From Thermoguttaceae bacterium (GTDB lineage Bacteria; Planctomycetota; Planctomycetia; Pirellulales; Thermoguttaceae), in NCBI GenBank assembly GCA_024653385.1, contig JANLFZ010000002.1:1-36756 (forward strand): 36,756 nt of DNA. Direction: 5' to 3'. The stretch's first letter is position 1. Each line of letters opens with the position of its first letter. This document shows, one piece after another, positions 336 to 12,872 of this stretch. The notes beneath the pieces were generated by a model, which saw nothing but the letters and a program-made list of their open reading frames with translations, was not told the DNA's origin and searched no databases. A program made the position numbers and the translations under genes.

Positions 336-364
336 TTGACTTTCGGCTGCTTGCTTGGTTTACT
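336..364 (+). promoter_or_regulatory. Candidate sigma70-type promoter for the cysteine synthase/CysRS-like gene
   Basis: TTGACT at 336-341, a 17-nt spacer, then TTTACT at 359-364, about 80 nt upstream of ATG 444. It lies in the 233-bp divergent intergenic region. Assignment is by sequence match only. Confidence 0.3.
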
Positions 365-443
365 GGCGCGCTACGGCCCGCGCGGGCGGCGCGCACGAGG
401 ATCGCGCCTGCGCGGGCCATCCCACCCACGTGAGGGCCGCACG

Positions 444-2756
444 ATGCCGCCTCGCAAGGTCAACTCGATTCTCGAACTCATCGGGAACACGCCGCTTATC
501 CGCATCAACCGCCTGAACCCGGAGCCGGGGGTCGAGGTCTTCGTCAAGCTCGAGTCGATGAATCCGGGCGGATCGGTCAAGGACCGCATTGCCCTGCGCA
601 TGATCGAGCAGGCCGAGGCGACGGGCCAGTTGACGCGGGATAAGATCGTCCTGGAGGCCAGCAGCGGCAACACGGCGATCGGGTTGGCCATGGTCTGCGC
701 GGTCAAGGGGTACCGGCTGTTGGTCACGATGAGCGAATCGGCCAGCGAGGAGCGCCGGCGGATTCTGAGGGCCTACGGGGCCCAGATCGTGCTGACGCCG
801 GGCTATCAGGGGACCGACGGGGCGATCGAGGAGGCGTATCGCCTGGCGCGCGAAGAGCCCGACAAGTACATGCTCGTCGACCAGTTCAACAACGACGCCA
901 ATTGGTTGGCGCATTACGAGGGCACGGGCCGGGAGATCGTCGAGGCCACCGAGGGAAAGGTCGATGTGGTGGTGCTCACGATGGGGACGACGGGCACGCT
1001 GATGGGCACGGCCCGGGCGCTGAGGGAACTGGTCCCCACGGTGCGCGTGGTGGGCGTCGAGCCCTACAAGGGGCACAAGATCCAGGGGCTTAAGAACCTC
1101 AAGGAGAGTTATCCTCCCGGCATCTTCAACCCCGAGGTGCCCCACGCCCTGGTGAACGTCGATGACGACTCGGCCTACGAGATGGCCCGGCGTCTGGCCA
1201 GGGAAGAGGGGATCTTCGTGGGCATGAGCGCGGGCGCCGCGATGAAGGTGGCGCTGGACGAGGCCAAGGCGCTTGGCCGCGGCGTGGTGGTGGCCCTTTT
1301 GCCCGACGGCGGCGAGCGGTACTTGTCGACCTCGCTGTTCGCCTCCGAGGTGGTCCCCGAGCCGCTTCATTTCCACAACACGCTTTCCGGCAAGATCGAG
1401 CGGCTCGAGCCGACCAATCCGCGCCGCGTGACGGTGTACTCATGCGGTCCGAGTCTCGACGGCCCGCCCGACTTGGCCTTGTGCCGGAGGCTGGTGTTTT
1501 CGGACGTGCTGCGGCGCTATCTCGAGTGCCGGGGCTATGAAGTCAAGCACGCGATGAATCTCGGCGACATCGACGATCGCGTGGTCAACGAGTGCCTGAA
1601 GACGCAAGGACGCCTGCGCGAGTTCACGGCCCGCTGGGAGAAAGTCTTCTTCGAGGCCCTGGCCACGCTGCGCGTGCGGCGCGCGGAGCACTATCCCCGG
1701 GCGAGCGAGCACGTGGGCGACATGATCGAACTGACCCGCCGGCTCTTGGAAAAAGGACTGGCCTACGAGAAGCTCCGCTCGGTCTACTACCGCATCGACC
1801 GGTTTCCCGAGTACGGCAGGCTCTCGAAGGTTCCGCCCGGGCAGGTGCGAGCCGAGTCGCCCACGCTCTACGACTACTATGAAAAGGACAACCCCCGCGA
1901 CTTCGCCCTTTTCAAGCGTTCGACCCTAGCCGAGCTGAAGGCGGGCATTTTCTGGGACACGCCCTGGGGCAAGGCGAGGCCGGGCTGGCACATCGAGTGC
2001 TCGTGCATGGCGGTGCGCTGCCTCGGCCAGCCGTTCGACATCCATACGGCCAGCACCGACCTGACGTTTCCCCACGGCGACAACGAAATCGCCATTGCTT
2101 GCGGCCTGGCCGGCAAACCGCTGGCAAAGCTCTGGATGCATTGCGAAGTGGTCATGGCCGACGGGAAGAAGGTCAGCCGCGCCGCGGGCAACGACGTGAC
2201 CTTGGAAGACCTGTTGGCCGAGGGGTTCGACGGAGCCACGATCCGCTATTGGCTACTGGCTGCCCATTATCGTACTCCCTTGCACTACCACCGCGCGGAA
2301 CTTCAAAGCGCCCAGCGGTGCGTTGCCCGGCTCAACGAGTTCGCGACCCGACTGCGCCAATTCGAAGGGGGCCGGCACGCCGCGGACCTCGATCAGGCGC
2401 TTTATGAAGCCCGCGCGGGCTGGCAAGAGGCCATGGATCGCGACTTGAACACGCCCACGGCCTTGGGGAGGGTCTTCGCCTTCATCCGCCGGTGCAACCG
2501 GCTCTTGGACCAGCACGGGATGGACTGCCAGCAGTCGCAGCAGGTGCTCGAGTTCCTCGGGCAGGTGAATCGGGTGCTGGCGGTCATCGACACGCCGTCC
2601 GACCAGTCCGATGCCGAGGTGGAACGCCTGGTGGCGGCCCGCAACCAGGCGCGCCGCGCGGGCGATTTCCACCGCGCCGACCTGATCCGCGAGGAGCTTC
2701 GCGCCAAGGGAATCCACCTGATCGACAGTCCCACCGGCACGCGGTGGAGGCGTTAA
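444..2756 (+). CDS. Fusion protein: PLP-dependent cysteine synthase (CysK/CysM type) plus a cysteinyl-tRNA-synthetase-like domain with degenerate HIGH and KMSKS motifs
   Basis: Lies in ORF 336..2756. The first ATG is at 444, preceded by GAGGG at 432-436. The N-terminal half has NPGGSVKDR, SSGNTA, GTTGT, SAGAA and GERYLSTSLF. The C-terminal half (from about nt 1365) is collinear with class-I CysRS: CGP, DIDD, RPGWHIECS, DLTFPHGDNEIA, DLNTP and a C-terminal TGTRWRR. The HIGH position reads DLAL and the KMSKS position reads KVSRA. Confidence 0.85.
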   Translation: MPPRKVNSILELIGNTPLIRINRLNPEPGVEVFVKLESMNPGGSVKDRIALRMIEQAEATGQLTRDKIVLEASSGNTAIGLAMVCAVKGYRLLVTMSESASEERRRILRAYGAQIVLTPGYQGTDGAIEEAYRLAREEPDKYMLVDQFNNDANWLAHYEGTGREIVEATEGKVDVVVLTMGTTGTLMGTARALRELVPTVRVVGVEPYKGHKIQGLKNLKESYPPGIFNPEVPHALVNVDDDSAYEMARRLAREEGIFVGMSAGAAMKVALDEAKALGRGVVVALLPDGGERYLSTSLFASEVVPEPLHFHNTLSGKIERLEPTNPRRVTVYSCGPSLDGPPDLALCRRLVFSDVLRRYLECRGYEVKHAMNLGDIDDRVVNECLKTQGRLREFTARWEKVFFEALATLRVRRAEHYPRASEHVGDMIELTRRLLEKGLAYEKLRSVYYRIDRFPEYGRLSKVPPGQVRAESPTLYDYYEKDNPRDFALFKRSTLAELKAGIFWDTPWGKARPGWHIECSCMAVRCLGQPFDIHTASTDLTFPHGDNEIAIACGLAGKPLAKLWMHCEVVMADGKKVSRAAGNDVTLEDLLAEGFDGATIRYWLLAAHYRTPLHYHRAELQSAQRCVARLNEFATRLRQFEGGRHAADLDQALYEARAGWQEAMDRDLNTPTALGRVFAFIRRCNRLLDQHGMDCQQSQQVLEFLGQVNRVLAVIDTPSDQSDAEVERLVAARNQARRAGDFHRADLIREELRAKGIHLIDSPTGTRWRR

Positions 2757-2836: not shown

Positions 2837-4339
<1,503 letters not shown>

Positions 4340-4355
4340 TCGACGCTTGCGGGGT

Positions 4356-4841
4356 CTACAGCATGGCGCCGGCTTGGGGGTCGACCGCGATGCCGTCGGT
4401 AAGTTCCGCCAGCGCGCCGAGTACCAGGAGCAAGGTACTCGGGTCGAGCATGTCTTCCTCGTCTTCCGAACCGGCATCGGTCAATTGCTCGAAGTGGAGG
4501 ACGTCGAAGCGGGCATCGAAGTCCTTCAGGCGGTTCAGTTTGCGGCGATCGTCGGGACCGAGGTCGGGGGTCTTCATCTCGTGGATGAGGCTCTCGACCT
4601 GTTCGCGCACCTCGTCGCCGCCGATGAAACAGATGTCCAGCGCGGCGAAGTCGTCGGGGGCCAGCACCGTGACCGACTCGAACAGCCCTCGCTCCGCGGC
4701 CACGCCGTTGGCCAACGTGAAGCGGCCCCCCAGCGAAAGCAGCTTCTTCTCGACGGCCTTGAGCCGGGGTCGTTTGGACGACTCGAACAGCACAAAGTAG
4801 GTCTCTCGCCACCGGTACTGGTCGTTCTCGAACATCGACAT
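4356..4841 (-). CDS. Hypothetical acidic protein (161 aa), no family recognised
   Basis: ATG at 4841 is preceded by AAGGGG with a 6-nt spacing, inside a 15-nt gap after the upstream stop. Third codon positions are G/C-rich. The opposite-strand ORF (4347..5237) has an antisense-like R/G/V/L-rich composition. Confidence 0.6.
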   Translation of the reverse strand: MSMFENDQYRWRETYFVLFESSKRPRLKAVEKKLLSLGGRFTLANGVAAERGLFESVTVLAPDDFAALDICFIGGDEVREQVESLIHEMKTPDLGPDDRRKLNRLKDFDARFDVLHFEQLTDAGSEDEEDMLDPSTLLLVLGALAELTDGIAVDPQAGAML

Positions 4842-4856
4842 GGCGATCCCCTTGGG

Positions 4857-5087
4857 CTATTGGTCGTCGTCGGGCGAGGTTTCTCCGGACCACGCCTCCA
4901 GGGCGCGGAGCACCGCGTCGCGCTCCTCGGGGCTGGAGGCCCACACCGATTCGCCGTCCTCCAACCGGACCTCGTAGTTGCCCTCCTGCTGGCAGTCGGG
5001 CGAGCCGCAGAAGTGCGGCAGCGCGGAGACCCAGAGGATGCGGTACAGCGGGACGTATTTGTCGTCGATCAGGCAGAACGTGGGCAT
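4857..5087 (-). CDS. Hypothetical small protein (76 aa) with an HFCGSPDC motif and an acidic tail
   Basis: ATG at 5087, 31 nt downstream of the proC stop. Coding-like composition, but no clear SD and no recognised family. Confidence 0.45.
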   Translation of the reverse strand: MPTFCLIDDKYVPLYRILWVSALPHFCGSPDCQQEGNYEVRLEDGESVWASSPEERDAVLRALEAWSGETSPDDDQ

Positions 5088-5118
5088 GGGTTTGGGTTTC
5101 GAGCCCGAGCGCGCGGGC

Positions 5119-5934
5119 TCAGCTTCCGAGTTCGACGGACCGGCGCGTGGCGGCCTCGACCGCGGCCATCAGGGCGGCGCGCACGGCCCCGGCCTCCAGC
5201 GCCTGAAGCCCCGCGATCGTGGTGCCGCCCGGACTAGCCACCCGGTCCTTGAGCACGCCCGGGTGCTCCCCCCCGAAAAGCACCATTTCGGCCGCCCCGC
5301 GCACGGTCTGGGCCGCCAGGGCGGTGGCCATGGGCCGCGGCAATCCCATGCGCACGCCGCCGTCGCTGAGGGCCTCGATCATCACGTACACGAAGGCCGG
5401 GCCAGAACCCGACAGCCCGGTCACCGCGTCGAGCAATTTCTCTTCCACTTGGAACGCGATCCCGACCGCCTCGAGCATCTGCTGGACGAGCCGGCCATCG
5501 TCGGGGGTCGCATGTTCGCCAAGACAGTAGCCGCAAGCGCCCCGCGAGACCAGACAGGGCGTGTTCGGCATGACGCGAACCAGACGCACACCCGCCCCCA
5601 GCGCTTCGGCCAGGACCGCCAGGCGGACGCCGGCCGCGATGGACACGACCAGTGTCCTAGGCAGAATTGCTCCCCTCAATTGACGTAGCACCCCGAACAT
5701 CTGCTGGGGCTTGACTGCCAGAAAGAGCACCTCGCTCGAGGCAGCCACTTCGAGGTTATCGGCCGTGGTCCGCGCACCGGTGGCGTGTTCGAACCGCGCA
5801 CGTGCCTCGACAAGGGGGTCGCTGGCCACCAATTGCTCGCACGAAGCCAGTCCGGCGCGGACCAGCCCCTGCGCCAAAGCCGTGGCCATCTGCCCGGCAC
5901 CGATGAATCCGATCCTCTGTTGCAACGCGGCCAT
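5119..5934 (-). CDS. proC: Pyrroline-5-carboxylate reductase
   Basis: IGFIGAGQMATALAQG Rossmann motif at the N-terminus and SPGGTTIAGL near the C-terminus. The track start at 5949 is a TTG; the ATG at 5934 is preferred. Confidence 0.9.
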   Translation of the reverse strand: MAALQQRIGFIGAGQMATALAQGLVRAGLASCEQLVASDPLVEARARFEHATGARTTADNLEVAASSEVLFLAVKPQQMFGVLRQLRGAILPRTLVVSIAAGVRLAVLAEALGAGVRLVRVMPNTPCLVSRGACGYCLGEHATPDDGRLVQQMLEAVGIAFQVEEKLLDAVTGLSGSGPAFVYVMIEALSDGGVRMGLPRPMATALAAQTVRGAAEMVLFGGEHPGVLKDRVASPGGTTIAGLQALEAGAVRAALMAAVEAATRRSVELGS

Positions 5935-6037
5935 GCGAGCCGACCCCAAGACCGAGGAACAAGACGTCGACGGCCGTCATGCTACGGCATTCGGGCAGAT
6001 TACACAAGCCAGTCGGACATCGCCCGACGTGACCGAC

Positions 6038-8908
6038 CTATTTCCCCCCGGCAAACAGGTGCGACCAGGCCCGGCGCAGCCGCTCGAGTTCTTTCTCTTG
6101 CTCTTCACTGAAGGAGCCTTGGCGGTGGGCGTAGGTGTCCATCCAGAGCACGAGCCGGTCGAGGCTCGGGGCGTCGAGCTGGACGCCTTCGTGGCCGCCG
6201 GGCTGGGTCAACAAGGCGTAGAGCTTGCTGGTGGCCGCCGTTCCCTGGCCGGGCATCGATCGGTCGCGTTCGAAGGCCTTCTTCTTGAGGTCCTCTCCGC
6301 CGAACGAGATCAGGCTCTGGTAGGACGCCGCCGCGGTCAAATCGAGCGACTGGCCCTTGTTGCCGCTGCCCGGCTTGTGGCAACTCACGCAAGCCTTGTC
6401 AAGAACCGGCTGCACCAACTGGTCGAACCGCAACGGCCACGAGCCGCTCGGGCCGGGAGTAAGCCTGGCGGGTTCGCGCAGCGCCGCCAGCGGGGCCTTG
6501 CCGTACACCGGGGCCGTGTCGCGTGATTCGTGGCAGCCGATGCAAGCCTGCGTCTGCTGGGGCATCACGTAGGTCAAGGTCCGCATGGTCTGGATCGCCA
6601 GGCCCCTTTCGTCGAGCACCTGGAAGAAGACCGGCACGCCCGAGGGCACGCGGAAACATGCCGATCCGTCGGCCTCGATCGGGGCCGTTCCGAGGACGAA
6701 CTTGCCGGGATCCTCGGCCGAGACGCCCAGGACGGGCGAATTCATGTTCGGCTGGACCTTGGGCGGCACCGCGACGATGCGGATCCGCTTGGCCGCCCCG
6801 CGGGGAATGCCCTCCAGCCCTCGGTACACGTCCTGCACGAGGAATCGCCCCTCTTGGCTCCCTTCCCATACCACGGTGTTGGGCAACACCGGGGGACGCT
6901 CGCGCGCCACCACCGGCAGCGGGTACTGGCTGCTGATCGCCGGGTCGCGGTGCAACAGTTCGAGGTTGCCGAAGGCGTCGTAAAGGTACACGCCCATGGC
7001 GTTGGGTGGGTTGCGGTCGTCGGTGCAGATCGTGTGCGGCGGCAGGCGCTTGTCGGCCCAGCCGACCAGGAAGAACTGCTCGGACAGCGGATAGGGATTG
7101 GCGTAGTAGTGGTCGTCCCAGCCCTCGGTCTCGGGGAAGGCCACCTCGGGGGTCAATCGCGTCAGGGGCCGCTCGAACTCGGTCCCCTGCGTGCGGTCCA
7201 GCAGCACGAGCGACCCGCCGGTGATCGAATGGTGCGCGCTGGCCGTGAACACCATCCGGTGGGAGTTGGGCACGGGACGGGCCTCGAACACGCACTGCGG
7301 CCTGACCGTGAAATTGCCGTAGACCAACTGGGCATTCGTGCCGTCGGGGTTCGTCGACCACAGGCTCATGAACGGCCCGTTGAAACGGTCGATGTAGTCC
7401 CATCGGGCGTAGAAGATGCGGCCGTCGCGCCCGACCATGGGCGTCCACTCGAAGTTCTCGAAGGCCGAGATCGGCCGCAGGTTCTTGCCTTGCGCGTCCA
7501 TCACGTGGAGCGTGAAGACTCCGACGGGCCGGTACGCGTCGCCGCCGCAACGCACGTAGCTATCGGGGCACACGGGGTTCGCCTCGGTCGCCGCGGCGCT
7601 GGCGCGCCCGCACTGGATCGCCACCCCTTTGCGCGTCGAAAGGAACACGATCTCGCCGTTGGGAAGATAGCGCGGGTCGAAATCGTCGTAGCGGCCCCGC
7701 GTGATCTGCCGCCGTGAACCGCCGTCGAGATTCATCTCGTAGATGTGGTAGAAACTGTCGTCGGGCAGTTTCTCTTTTTCCAGCTTGTTCCGTACCGCGG
7801 AGACATGCGGATACCAGCGGCAGTAGGCAAACAGCACCCTCTTGCCGTCGTACGAGAGGTCGGGGCCGGCGAAGTTGCCCTCGGGCATGTCGGCCGTCAG
7901 GCAGCGAATCCGCGGGTTGGCGCTCTTGAGTCCTTCGAGCAGGTAGATCCCTCCGCCAGGTCGCGACCACCAGCCGTAGTGCTGGTCGGACATGTGGGGG
8001 AACATGGTCGGTGCCCGCTTGACGAAGAGGATCGTGTCGAAGTTCAGAAGCGGGTTAGATAGGGCCATGCGGCGGACCGCCCAGCGGGCCTGAAAATACA
8101 CCTCTCGCTGTGCGGCCTCGGGGGCGTTGGGGGGCAGGGCCTTGAACTTCGACGCGGCCTGCTCGAGCGCGGCCGCGTCGGCGTCGATCTTGGCGCCCAT
8201 CGCCCGCAGTGCCTCGGCCAGCTTCCTCCCCCGCTCGATGACGGTCGCGGTCGCGTAGGTGCGGGCCTGGACCACCGGCGGGCCATGGCGCACCGACCAC
8301 TGGCTCACGCTGCTCTGGTCGGCCGGTTTGCCTAGGGCGACGTTCTTCTGGCTGTCGCCGACGGCGTAGATCTCGACCTCATCCAGATGGAAGTAGCTCG
8401 TGCCGGGAAGTTGAAGCCGCACATACCGGGCCGTGACGCCGTTGAGCTTGACTTCCAACGGCCTCTTGTCGGTGTGGCCATAGAACACGGTGCCGTTGTT
8501 CTGGTAGACCTTTTGGAAGGTCTTGCCATCGAGCGACACCAGGATCATGAGCCGGTTGTTCCGTTCGGCCAGTTCGCAGCGGTTCCAGAGGAGCACGCGA
8601 TCCAGCACCATGGACGATTCGAGGTCCACCTGCCACCAGGGGTCCGCCTCGTTCTCGGTGTGGAAACCCCACTTGCCGTTCTTCACACCGTCGACACCGC
8701 CGGCCGCGTCCTCCTTGGTCGTCGGGCGGCCCGCCAGACCCGTTTGGCCCGGACGACGGACCTCATCCTGTCGAAGCCAATCGGCCTCGATCTGCTCGGG
8801 AGTGGTGGCAGGGCCTTCGAGCATCGGCTTCGGCGGCTCGGCAGCCAGGACCCACGGTGCCGATGCCAGCGGAACGACCACCCCGAGTAGCATGGCCAAC
8901 CTTCTCAC
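6038..8908 (-). CDS. Exported multidomain protein: F5/8 type C (discoidin) domain, PD40/TolB-like beta-propeller region and a C-terminal region with two CXXCH haem-c motifs
   Basis: GTG start at 8908 lies 6 nt after a strong AAGGAG (8915-8920, minus strand); an alternative ATG is at 8893. Signal peptide MRRLAMLLGVVVPLASAPWVLAAEP. Discoidin-like segment NGKWGFHTENEADPWWQVDL...YVRLQL...HLDEVEIY. Propeller-like repeats DGKRVLFAY, NGEIVFLS and DGRIFYARWD. CIGCH at 6530-6544 and CVSCH at 6377-6391. Confidence 0.8.
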   Translation of the reverse strand: MRRLAMLLGVVVPLASAPWVLAAEPPKPMLEGPATTPEQIEADWLRQDEVRRPGQTGLAGRPTTKEDAAGGVDGVKNGKWGFHTENEADPWWQVDLESSMVLDRVLLWNRCELAERNNRLMILVSLDGKTFQKVYQNNGTVFYGHTDKRPLEVKLNGVTARYVRLQLPGTSYFHLDEVEIYAVGDSQKNVALGKPADQSSVSQWSVRHGPPVVQARTYATATVIERGRKLAEALRAMGAKIDADAAALEQAASKFKALPPNAPEAAQREVYFQARWAVRRMALSNPLLNFDTILFVKRAPTMFPHMSDQHYGWWSRPGGGIYLLEGLKSANPRIRCLTADMPEGNFAGPDLSYDGKRVLFAYCRWYPHVSAVRNKLEKEKLPDDSFYHIYEMNLDGGSRRQITRGRYDDFDPRYLPNGEIVFLSTRKGVAIQCGRASAAATEANPVCPDSYVRCGGDAYRPVGVFTLHVMDAQGKNLRPISAFENFEWTPMVGRDGRIFYARWDYIDRFNGPFMSLWSTNPDGTNAQLVYGNFTVRPQCVFEARPVPNSHRMVFTASAHHSITGGSLVLLDRTQGTEFERPLTRLTPEVAFPETEGWDDHYYANPYPLSEQFFLVGWADKRLPPHTICTDDRNPPNAMGVYLYDAFGNLELLHRDPAISSQYPLPVVARERPPVLPNTVVWEGSQEGRFLVQDVYRGLEGIPRGAAKRIRIVAVPPKVQPNMNSPVLGVSAEDPGKFVLGTAPIEADGSACFRVPSGVPVFFQVLDERGLAIQTMRTLTYVMPQQTQACIGCHESRDTAPVYGKAPLAALREPARLTPGPSGSWPLRFDQLVQPVLDKACVSCHKPGSGNKGQSLDLTAAASYQSLISFGGEDLKKKAFERDRSMPGQGTAATSKLYALLTQPGGHEGVQLDAPSLDRLVLWMDTYAHRQGSFSEEQEKELERLRRAWSHLFAGGK

Positions 8909-11750: not shown

Positions 11751-12872
11751 ATGCCCCCCGTGGTGATCGATCTCCGTGCCGCCGACGATCTTCGGGATGT
11801 CGTTCTCGAGGCGGTGCAAGCGCTGGCCCAAGGGAAATTGGTCGCGTTTCCGACCGAGACGGTCTACGGGTTGGCGGCCCGGGCGCTGGATGCCGGCGCG
11901 GTCGCGCGGCTGCTCCAGGTGAAAGGCCGTAAGCCGGGACATGCGCTAACGCTGGCCATCCGCAGCGCGGAGGAGGCCCGCGACTATGCCCCCGACATGC
12001 CGCCGCTGGCCCATCGCCTCGCGCGGCGGTGCTGGCCCGGCCCGATCACGCTGGTGCTCGACGACTCCCACCCGGAAAGCACCGTCAGGCGGCTTCCGTG
12101 CAGTGTGCGCGAGGCCGTCGCGCCTGCCGGCACGGTGGGCTTGCGCGTGCCAGGGCATTCGGTCATGCTTGATGTGCTCCAGATGATCGCCGGCCCCTTG
12201 GTCCTCTCCAGCGCCAACCGCTCCGGAGAACCCGACGCGCGCACCGCGACCGACGTCGTTGCGTCGCTGGGCGACGACGTCGACCTGGTGCTCGACGACG
12301 GTCCCACGCGATTCGGGCAGCCGTCGTCGGTGGTGCGGGTCCGGGGCAAACAGTACGAGTTGCTTCGCCCGGGCGTGGTTCCCGAGAAAACCCTGCGCCG
12401 TCTGGCCGGCTTGATGGTGTTGTTTGTTTGCGCTGGTAATACCTGCCGCAGCCCCATGGCCGAGGTCCTCTTCCGCAAGATGGCTGCCGACCGTATCGGG
12501 TGCCAACTCGGCGAGTTGGAAGACCGCGGGGTAACGGTCGTCTCGGCGGGCCTCTCCGCGATGGCAGGCGGTCGCGCCGCGCCCGAGGCCTGCCGGGTCA
12601 TGTCCGACCGCGGGCTGGACCTCTCGATGCATGAGACGCAGCCGTTGACCGAACCGCTGGTGCGCCACGCCGATGCCATCTACACCATGACGCGTGTCCA
12701 GCGCCAGACCATCGTGGCCCAGTGGCCGCAGGCCGCCGAGCGGTGCCGGATGCTCAGCGCGTCGGGCATGGACATCTCCGATCCGATCGGCGGCCCGGTC
12801 GAACGTTACCAGCGGTGCGCCGAGCAGATCCAGTCGGAACTCAAGGCCCGACTCGACGAGTTGGAGTTGTAG
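11751..12872 (+). CDS. tsaC: Fusion: L-threonylcarbamoyladenylate synthase (TsaC/YrdC domain) plus a low-molecular-weight protein phosphatase (YwlE-like)
   Basis: YrdC-domain motifs [21 protein letters not shown] and [10 protein letters not shown]. From about residue 225 onward: the P-loop [15 protein letters not shown] (CX5R-S) and the DISDPIGG general-acid motif. Confidence 0.85.

Follow-up and report, generated by a model that had tools for sequence, protein, structure and literature searches.

Near the start of a 36,756-nucleotide stretch of DNA from a Thermoguttaceae bacterium (Planctomycetota; Pirellulales; assembly GCA_024653385.1, contig JANLFZ010000002.1, positions 1 to 36,756; hereafter the window), a single gene encodes a complete cysteine synthase dependent on pyridoxal phosphate (PLP), joined to a full-length paralogue of cysteinyl-tRNA synthetase (CysRS). 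The CysRS-like half has lost the motifs of the ATP site and keeps the zinc ligands and the anticodon-binding residues. It is under purifying selection, falls with its relatives in a clade separate from canonical CysRS, and is paired with one subfamily of PALP proteins. By analogy with HisZ and GCN2, we tentatively suggest that it may be a non-charging module that binds tRNA(Cys) and cysteine and couples or regulates cysteine synthesis, a role to which we give somewhat less than an even chance.

Anatomy of the fusion protein

The gene lies in an open reading frame (ORF) of 336..2756 on the forward strand, and the ATG at 444 agrees with the N-termini of homologues, giving a protein of 770 amino acids (aa). 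An initial annotation, made from the letters of the sequence alone, had proposed that one ORF here encodes both a cysteine synthase and a CysRS-like body, which is borne out by the ORF call, Pfam and an end-to-end alignment with CysRS. The motifs and coordinates that it gave proved exact throughout when compared with structure and homologue alignments and by a string check. The features of the gene are as follows.

444..2756 (+): fusion gene, 770 aa plus stop codon (ORF call, Pfam, homologue search)
471..1307 (+): fold-type-II PLP cysteine synthase domain of the CysK/CysM family, residues 10-288 (Pfam PALP, 2e-76; TIGR01136; Foldseek)
579..581 (+): K46, Schiff-base lysine of SVKDR, invariant in the family
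660..677 (+): SSGNTA loop, conserved in the family
984..998 (+): GTTGT loop, PLP phosphate binding (family alignment)
1071..1127 (+): lid loop GHKIQGLKNLKESYPPGIF, residues 210-228, signature of the PALP subfamily paired with CysRS-like partners, hardly varying whether fused or split
1227..1241 (+): SAGAA motif (family alignment)
1332..1364 (+): linker SLFASEVVPEP, 11 residues, of constant length within clade A (defined below)
1365..2753 (+): full-length CysRS-like body, residues 308-770 (phmmer, Foldseek), with tRNA-synt_1e at residues 322-624 (Pfam, 1e-81)
1443..1445 (+): C334, equivalent to E. coli C28, zinc ligand 1 (alignment)
1470..1481 (+): DLAL at the HIGH position, E. coli H37-IGH40 (structure-sequence alignment)
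1482..1490 (+): C347-R348-R349, the 'xRR' signature of most of the paralogue family (alignment)
1563..1565 (+): G374 at the position of E. coli T68 (alignment)
1578..1589 (+): RVVN at the KIIK position (alignment)
1986..2000 (+): WHIEC, with W515 and H516 of the cysteine pocket and C519, equivalent to E. coli C209, zinc ligand 2 (alignment)
2043..2054 (+): HTAS at the HGGG position, G226A and G227S (alignment)
2073..2087 (+): HGDNE at the HHENE position, E. coli H234-HENE238, with H235G and E236D; H544 and E548, zinc ligands 3 and 4, kept (alignment)
2169..2183 (+): KVSRA at the KMSKS position, E. coli K266-MSKS270, with K269R and S270A (alignment)
2421..2582 (+): DALR_2 helical domain, residues 660-713 (Pfam)
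2610..2750 (+): CysS_C anticodon-binding domain, residues 723-769 (Pfam)
2640..2690 (+): anticodon-reading helix RNQARRAGDFHRADLIR, aligned with E. coli R423, A426, R427, W432 (F here), D436 and R439

The C-terminal 463 residues match CysRS structures from end to end (8qhp, 2e-91, and E. coli 1li5, 4e-74, by phmmer). An AlphaFold2 model of the fusion has a mean predicted local distance difference test score (pLDDT) of 83 and a predicted template-modelling score (pTM) of 0.61, with low confidence at residues 289-304 (the linker, pLDDT below 50) and at residues 208-222 of the lid loop; the domains themselves are modelled confidently. Its CysRS-like half superposes on 8qhp with a Foldseek template-modelling (TM) score of 0.91 and on the tRNA complex 1u0b with 0.80, and its PLP half on CysK/CysM structures with 0.85-0.90.

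The PLP half is a complete fold-type-II cysteine synthase, as first annotated: besides the fold, it carries SVKDR, SSGNTA, GTTGT and SAGAA, and it scores 359.3 bits against the NCBIfam cysKM profile (TIGR01136; cut-off 344.15), with the narrower cysK and cysM equivalogs both below their cut-offs. From CysK structures we take the SSGNTA ('Asn') loop to be the substrate-carboxylate loop, and the SSGNT loop together with Gln147, which the family alignment shows to be retained, presumably binds a free alpha-carboxylate. The retention of K46, the phosphate loop and this presumed carboxylate loop and glutamine argues for a free amino-acid substrate, and the PLP half looks like an ordinary enzyme for such a substrate. 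What sets it apart is the lid, with a consensus of GHKIQGLK(N/S)(L/M)(K/Q)E(S/A)YxPG(I/V)F across fused and split PALP proteins; this signature was not found in the 11 stand-alone-length CysK/M representatives compared.

To describe the CysRS-like half, columns at least 80% conserved in canonical CysRS were compared between 109 close family members on one side and 71 canonical representatives plus E. coli CysS on the other. The zinc ligands of E. coli CysS (C28, C209, H234 and E238) have their counterparts in C334, C519, H544 and E548, which are invariant in the close family, and all columns of the zinc/cysteine pocket (C28, G29, P30, W205, H206, C209, H234, E238) are unchanged, as are 19 of the 22 conserved columns of the CP domain. 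In the anticodon domain, none of the eight conserved columns has changed (R423, A426, R427, D436, R439, G446, D451, G455). The initial annotation was thus right that zinc site and anticodon domain persist. An engineering paper on PDB 1U0B targeted R427, W432, D436 and R439 as anticodon-binding positions and has R427 hydrogen-bonded to G34. The equivalents in the fusion are R737, F742, D746 and R749, the W432 position being F or Y.

The ATP site has fared differently. Alignment supports the three replacements first proposed, namely HIGH by DLAL, KMSKS by KVSRA and HHENE by HGDNE, and adds those at HGGG, KIIK and T68, the last of which we take to anchor the amino group of bound cysteine in E. 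coli. Ten columns are conserved in both groups with a changed residue at positions that we assume to line the ATP/adenylate pocket (H37D, T68G, K73R, G226A, G227S, H235G, E236D, M267V, K269R, S270A), and ten more follow the same pattern (T31, V32, Y33, I75, T115, W184, G201, Q241, S242, L260). A string search of the whole 770-aa protein found no further H-x-G-H/N or K-M-S-K string that might serve instead, and so the motif loss stands. With the ATP site altered at five places and no alternative motif, neither adenylate formation nor tRNA charging is expected.

Selection, family and genomic neighbourhood

The fusion is a genuine gene and not an assembly artefact. The best 120 database matches are all fusions, at least 114 of them full-length, with 65-79% identity to the query, the same continuous architecture and a conserved linker; they come from independent assemblies of Pirellulales/Thermoguttaceae, Desulfarculaceae and other metagenome-assembled genomes (MAGs), and the identical architecture recurs in more than 100 independent assemblies. 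The full-length homologues thereby exclude an assembly or frameshift artefact, which the initial annotation had named as the way its fusion claim could fail. Among pairs whose dS is unsaturated, the PLP half has a dN/dS of 0.05-0.10 and the CysRS-like half one of 0.12-0.20; the latter is therefore under purifying selection rather than decaying.

Two kinds of irregular copy were seen among the loci. One Desulfarculaceae MAG (JAMOVV01) holds two distinct clade-A fusion copies (L034 and L036), reflecting either true paralogy or a mixed bin. In several long-read 'MFD' MAGs (L040, L044, L048, and, with a short upstream ORF, L009, L010, L028, L037) the fusion gene is interrupted by frameshifts, most likely homopolymer sequencing errors and not pseudogenes because the remaining sequence is conserved.

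The family was mapped with a scan of one genome per GTDB species, which returned 134 relatives, and with a search of 1.8 billion cluster representatives. The closest relative in the species scan, at 95% identity, is from a Pirellulales-type MAG of a site labelled SulCav. Bacterial hosts of the paralogues belong to Planctomycetota, Desulfobacterota and Acidobacteriota, and many are anaerobes. Four branches differ in what remains of the catalytic motifs.

Clade A (includes the fusion of the window; Pirellulales, Desulfarculaceae, others): DL[GA]L-CRR for HIGH; G or A for T68; HGDNE for HHENE (HGENE in a few); KKVSR for KMSKS
Clade B (Desulfobulbales): N[LI][AS][HL]-CRR for HIGH, intact in one member; T68 and HHENE kept; KM[SAT]x for KMSKS, second lysine lost
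Clade C (Desulfobacterales): HLGQ, HPGE or ALSE for HIGH; T68 and HHENE kept; KKVD-E for KMSKS
Zinc-less branch (includes a Desulfovibrio ferrophilus protein): HIGH degenerate; A for T68; HHENE lost; KMSKS lost

In the species scan clade A consists of MAGs only, with no cultured isolates; clade B includes the cultured Desulfopila sp. IMCC35008 and Desulfobulbus rhabdoformis. Three zinc-less proteins, P0126 (D. ferrophilus WP_126381224.1, named 'cysteine synthase' at NCBI), P0129 and P0134, have V or F for C28, M or Q for C209 and L for E238, and their anticodon-reading helix is intact. Indeed the helix pattern R-x2-A-R-x4-[WFY]-x3-A-D-x2-R is kept in all branches, even in members without any zinc ligand; three members show conservative substitutions in it (R/K or A/S).

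A neighbour-joining tree of 114 sequences (459 columns, 200 bootstraps), a simple method in which long-branch effects are possible, places all 42 bacterial fused and 'RR-type' sequences in one clade with 93% bootstrap support and none of the sampled canonical CysRS within it; clade A has 96.5%. The distribution of the fusion, which the initial annotation had asked to be mapped, is that of a separate paralogue clade spread over several bacterial phyla. A cysteine synthase is also fused to CysRS in a 768-aa protein of a Nanoarchaeota archaeon MAG (P0124, MFW6014224.1), whose HIGN, KMSKS and zinc ligands are fully canonical. Its grouping with canonical CysRS in the tree has weak bootstrap support but suggests an independent fusion event, and the protein is presumably truly bifunctional.

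Two paralogues that appeared to stand alone proved on inspection to lie 2-4 nucleotides (nt) downstream of a separate PALP gene with the same lid (PALP gene followed by CysRS-like gene, L087 at 5108-7455 and L089 at 4209-6537). Each paralogue with context checked is therefore either fused to a PALP gene or encoded 2-4 nt after one, and the fused and split pairs are in a Rosetta-stone relation. Since the lid is common to fused and split PALP partners, the PLP enzyme and the CysRS-like protein appear as a co-evolving pair. In L089 alone, a ThiF/MoeB-family E1-like gene directly follows the CysRS-like gene (6553-7293), an arrangement that, as we understand that system, resembles the CysO/MoeZ sulfur-carrier route to CysM.

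Downstream of the fusion in the window, a Cys-type sulfatase gene (CVPSR motif, Pfam Sulfatase) starts after 81 nt. The initial annotation had noted this gene correctly and weakly linked it to cysteine synthesis through sulfate-ester scavenging; that link was rejected, as a sulfatase neighbour is not conserved in three clade-A neighbourhoods or in neighbour-ORF clusters over 80 loci. Its position is a coincidence in a sulfatase-rich planctomycete whose window also holds DUF1559 and N-methyl proteins. No conserved neighbour of any kind emerged from the same three clade-A neighbourhoods and 80 clustered loci, and the PLP/CysRS-like pair therefore looks self-contained. Clade B does have conserved neighbours (dciA, glnA, glnD, P-II, amtB, tRNA-Arg(UCU)), for which a functional link was rejected, as they resemble housekeeping synteny. 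Where a Desulfobulbales locus (L049-L086) extends far enough, the fusion is in most cases followed after about 90-130 nt by the tRNA-Arg(UCU) gene on the same strand; dciA stands directly upstream of the fusion in 28 loci. This synteny is probably inherited.

Neither the window nor any of 86 loci has a tRNA(Cys) gene beside the fusion, and neither the window nor any fetched locus has a second CysRS-like gene, a SepRS or a cysE. The window also contains no canonical cysS and no Rfam match to a leader RNA or riboswitch. Three other window genes are recorded here in their own right.

4356-4841 (-): ORF of 160 aa flanked by the sulfatase gene and proC; no Pfam match
6038-8908 (-): 955-aa protein in which two F5/8 type C (discoidin) domains accompany a middle domain of the hydrazine-synthase-alpha type (PF18582, 2e-22), plus a weak match to cytochrome c
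11751-12872 (+): Sua5/YciO/YrdC (t6A synthesis family) fused to a low-molecular-weight phosphotyrosine phosphatase domain

Possible role and alternatives

In the role that we tentatively favour, the N-terminal CysM/CysK-type enzyme would use an activated serine and a sulfur nucleophile to produce free cysteine, or a close analogue of it. The C-terminal CysRS paralogue, having lost ATP binding, would form no cysteinyl-adenylate and charge no tRNA, and would still bind tRNA(Cys) through its retained surface, including the readers of the GCA anticodon. The clade-A zinc-thiolate pocket, on which selection has continued, probably also binds cysteine or a cysteine-like thiol. The CysRS-like module would thus tie the activity or location of the synthase to the pool of tRNA(Cys) or cysteine, by demand sensing, feedback or localisation.

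That the module binds these ligands, no longer uses ATP and regulates or couples the synthase is our inference. We likewise infer a canonical cysS elsewhere in the same genome, because of the extent of motif loss, the occurrence of clade A in MAGs only in the species scan, and the zinc-less members, which would be unable to act as synthetases. Several points weigh against the proposal. K266 is kept, K269R is conservative and two arginines follow the lost HIGH, and a non-canonical nucleotide or anion site is possible. The T68G and H235G changes of clade A suggest that the pocket ligand is perhaps other than plain cysteine. With a pTM of 0.61 and low pLDDT in linker and lid, no inter-domain geometry can be read from the AlphaFold2 model, which therefore gives no verdict on the orientation of the PLP site relative to the CysRS pocket.

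No feature of the family is better conserved than its tRNA-binding surface, which outlasts the zinc ligands. This would also be expected of tRNA-dependent chemistry, in which the PLP domain acts on an amino acid esterified to the 3' end of tRNA(Cys) held by the CysRS-like part, for example as a fold-type-II counterpart of SepCysS on Sep- or Ser-tRNA(Cys), or in which the CysRS-like pocket draws an activated cysteinyl group from preformed Cys-tRNA(Cys), in the manner of cyclodipeptide synthases. An ATP site would be dispensable if activation occurs elsewhere, and C347 is a new near-invariant cysteine beside the former active site, but it is not universal in the family. The kept SSGNT loop and Q147, with their presumed role in binding a free alpha-carboxylate, tell against such chemistry, and on the same ground the SepCysS-like idea of the initial annotation is disfavoured. 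Planctomycetes are unmentioned in the main text of two surveys of bacterial SepRS/SepCysS, and no SepRS-like or acceptor-related gene is linked to the fusion in the loci inspected. We consider tRNA-dependent chemistry rather unlikely. The broader proposition that, in bacterial sulfur metabolism, a fold-type-II PLP enzyme works with tRNA(Cys) as its substrate, its cofactor or an activator that it cannot do without seems unlikely but worth stating. If true, the family would offer a second tRNA-linked way to make or to control cysteine or a derivative, evolved independently and built on a class-I synthetase shell that no longer uses ATP. A further reading is a bifunctional protein with a still working CysRS that uses substitute catalytic residues (R348/R349, K576, R579) and channels new cysteine onto tRNA(Cys). 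Such a design is viable, as the canonical-motif fusion of the Nanoarchaeota MAG exists; less degenerate paralogues keep HLGN or HIGL and KMSRS, some ArgRS function without a canonical KMSKS, and the TIGR00435 score exceeds its cut-off. In clade A, however, the HIGH histidines, both conserved HGGG glycines, H235, T68 and the second KMSKS lysine are replaced together, at least 10 positions of what we take to be the ATP pocket being lost simultaneously. Since sister branches lose even the zinc ligands, the family is selected for something other than aminoacylation, and the nanoarchaeal protein, grouping with canonical CysRS under weak bootstrap, is apparently an independent fusion. Adding that clade A was found in MAGs only, with no cultured isolates in the species scan, we regard a working synthetase as improbable.

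The enlarged clade-A pocket (T68G, H235G) with its zinc ligands could instead accommodate a larger thiol made by the CysM-like domain, for instance cysteine persulfide or S-sulfocysteine, and bind it or act on it through zinc, C347 and the RR pair. A new Cys-Arg-Arg stands at the former ATP-phosphate position, the lid is of CysM type with conserved lysines, and the hosts are sulfate reducers and anaerobes of sulfidic sites. In CARS, PLP is proposed to be held by lysines of KIIK and KMSKS; K73, K76 and K269 are all replaced in the fusion, and a CARS persulfide-synthase (CPERS) mode was rejected on these changes (KIIK to RVVN, K269R). Canonical CARS is reported to produce cysteine persulfide with PLP (PMC5660078), which counts for a sulfur role. 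The pocket changes are, however, limited to clade A, and a small-molecule role leaves the retention of every anticodon-reading residue unaccounted for, which makes it quite improbable. The loss of catalytic motifs would also suit a functionless, decaying remnant or an artefact, a view that is refuted by the homologue architecture shared among more than 100 independent assemblies, 65-79% identity across phyla and a dN/dS of 0.12-0.20, to which the conserved family-specific residues may be added, and to which we give practically no credence.

Comparison with known systems

Against the features of canonical CysRS (EC 6.1.1.16), the fusion has the four zinc ligands and the anticodon domain (R737, F742, D746, R749), and lacks HIGH, the second lysine of KMSKS and a place among canonical CysRS in the tree. 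It nonetheless scores 351.8 bits against cysS TIGR00435 (cut-off 340), and pipelines therefore name it a ligase: public records (P0010, P0002 and others) call it 'cysteine--tRNA ligase' or 'cysteinyl-tRNA synthetase' despite the lost ATP motifs. Because the fusion passes this equivalog threshold and bears a ligase name, synthetase inventories and pathway reconstructions of Planctomycetota and Desulfobacterota MAGs can be wrong.

The regulatory subunit HisZ of the ATP-phosphoribosyltransferase HisG is likewise a paralogue of an aminoacyl-tRNA synthetase (aaRS) without aminoacylation, coupled to the biosynthesis of its cognate amino acid. HisZ is a separate subunit without an anticodon-binding domain, whereas the CysRS-like half of the fusion keeps this domain; further, HisZ is of class II and acts at the first pathway step, whereas the fusion is of class I and is fused or translationally coupled to the last pathway enzyme. 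HisZ mediates allosteric inhibition by its own amino acid (PMC9437257). By analogy the fusion fits the HisZ-like pattern, with aminoacylation motifs lost and a physical link to the cognate amino-acid enzyme. The HisRS-like domain of GCN2 is a dead synthetase domain on an effector enzyme, which senses uncharged tRNA by its retained binding. It resembles the fusion in that a catalytically dead synthetase domain is joined to an enzyme, and differs in being eukaryotic, in having a kinase as effector and in binding many tRNAs instead of one isoacceptor family.

MshC, the cysteine:GlcN-Ins ligase, is likewise a CysRS paralogue with the zinc/cysteine pocket, and has a Foldseek TM of 0.83-0.84 to the fusion. 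Unlike the fusion, it retains both HIGH and KMSKS while lacking an anticodon domain. Identity with MshC was rejected: the fusion scores 173.8 bits against TIGR03447 (cut-off 485.1), its ATP motifs are lost and its anticodon domain is present. MshC itself is ATP-dependent (PMC9437257). CysRS* of Desulfobacterales is also an extra CysRS copy in sulfate reducers, but its anticodon domain is gone, and the tRNA that it has been proposed to charge is a dedicated one (PMC5389517). This pattern of loss is opposite to that of the CysRS-like half, in which the anticodon domain is kept and the ATP site lost.

The SepRS-SepCysS(-SepCysE) transsulfursome is likewise a single complex that brings PLP chemistry and tRNA(Cys) together with cysteine synthesis. 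SepCysS is of fold-type I and acts on Sep-tRNA(Cys), and SepRS is an active class-II enzyme, whereas the synthetase-like part of the fusion is of class I with its ATP site lost. Identity with a SepCysS-type enzyme was rejected, as the PLP domain is of fold-type II (PALP, Foldseek). CysK and CysM belong to the same family as this domain, the lid loop of the fusion being a subfamily-specific signature. A partner protein that modulates a cysteine synthase is a known theme from the CysK-CysE complex, where the partner is a serine acetyltransferase; in the fusion it is a CysRS paralogue.

Decay across the family is graded: the first losses are the second lysine of KMSKS and the final position of HIGH, the whole of HIGH follows, then the zinc ligands, and the anticodon readers stay. 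This stepwise loss of ATP and zinc residues with constant anticodon readers indicates which function is selected. A full-text literature search found no description of a cysteine synthase/CysRS-like fusion or pair, and the CysRS paralogues named in a 2022 review are MshC and CysRS* only (PMC9437257). We rate an aaRS-derived pseudo-enzyme tied to amino-acid biosynthesis as a known type, within which the cysteine synthase/CysRS-like family appears to be new. If our reading is true, the family would be a third group of CysRS paralogues beside MshC and CysRS*, and would provide a clear bacterial example of a pseudo-enzyme that descends from a synthetase, binds tRNA and is coupled to the pathway for its own amino acid.

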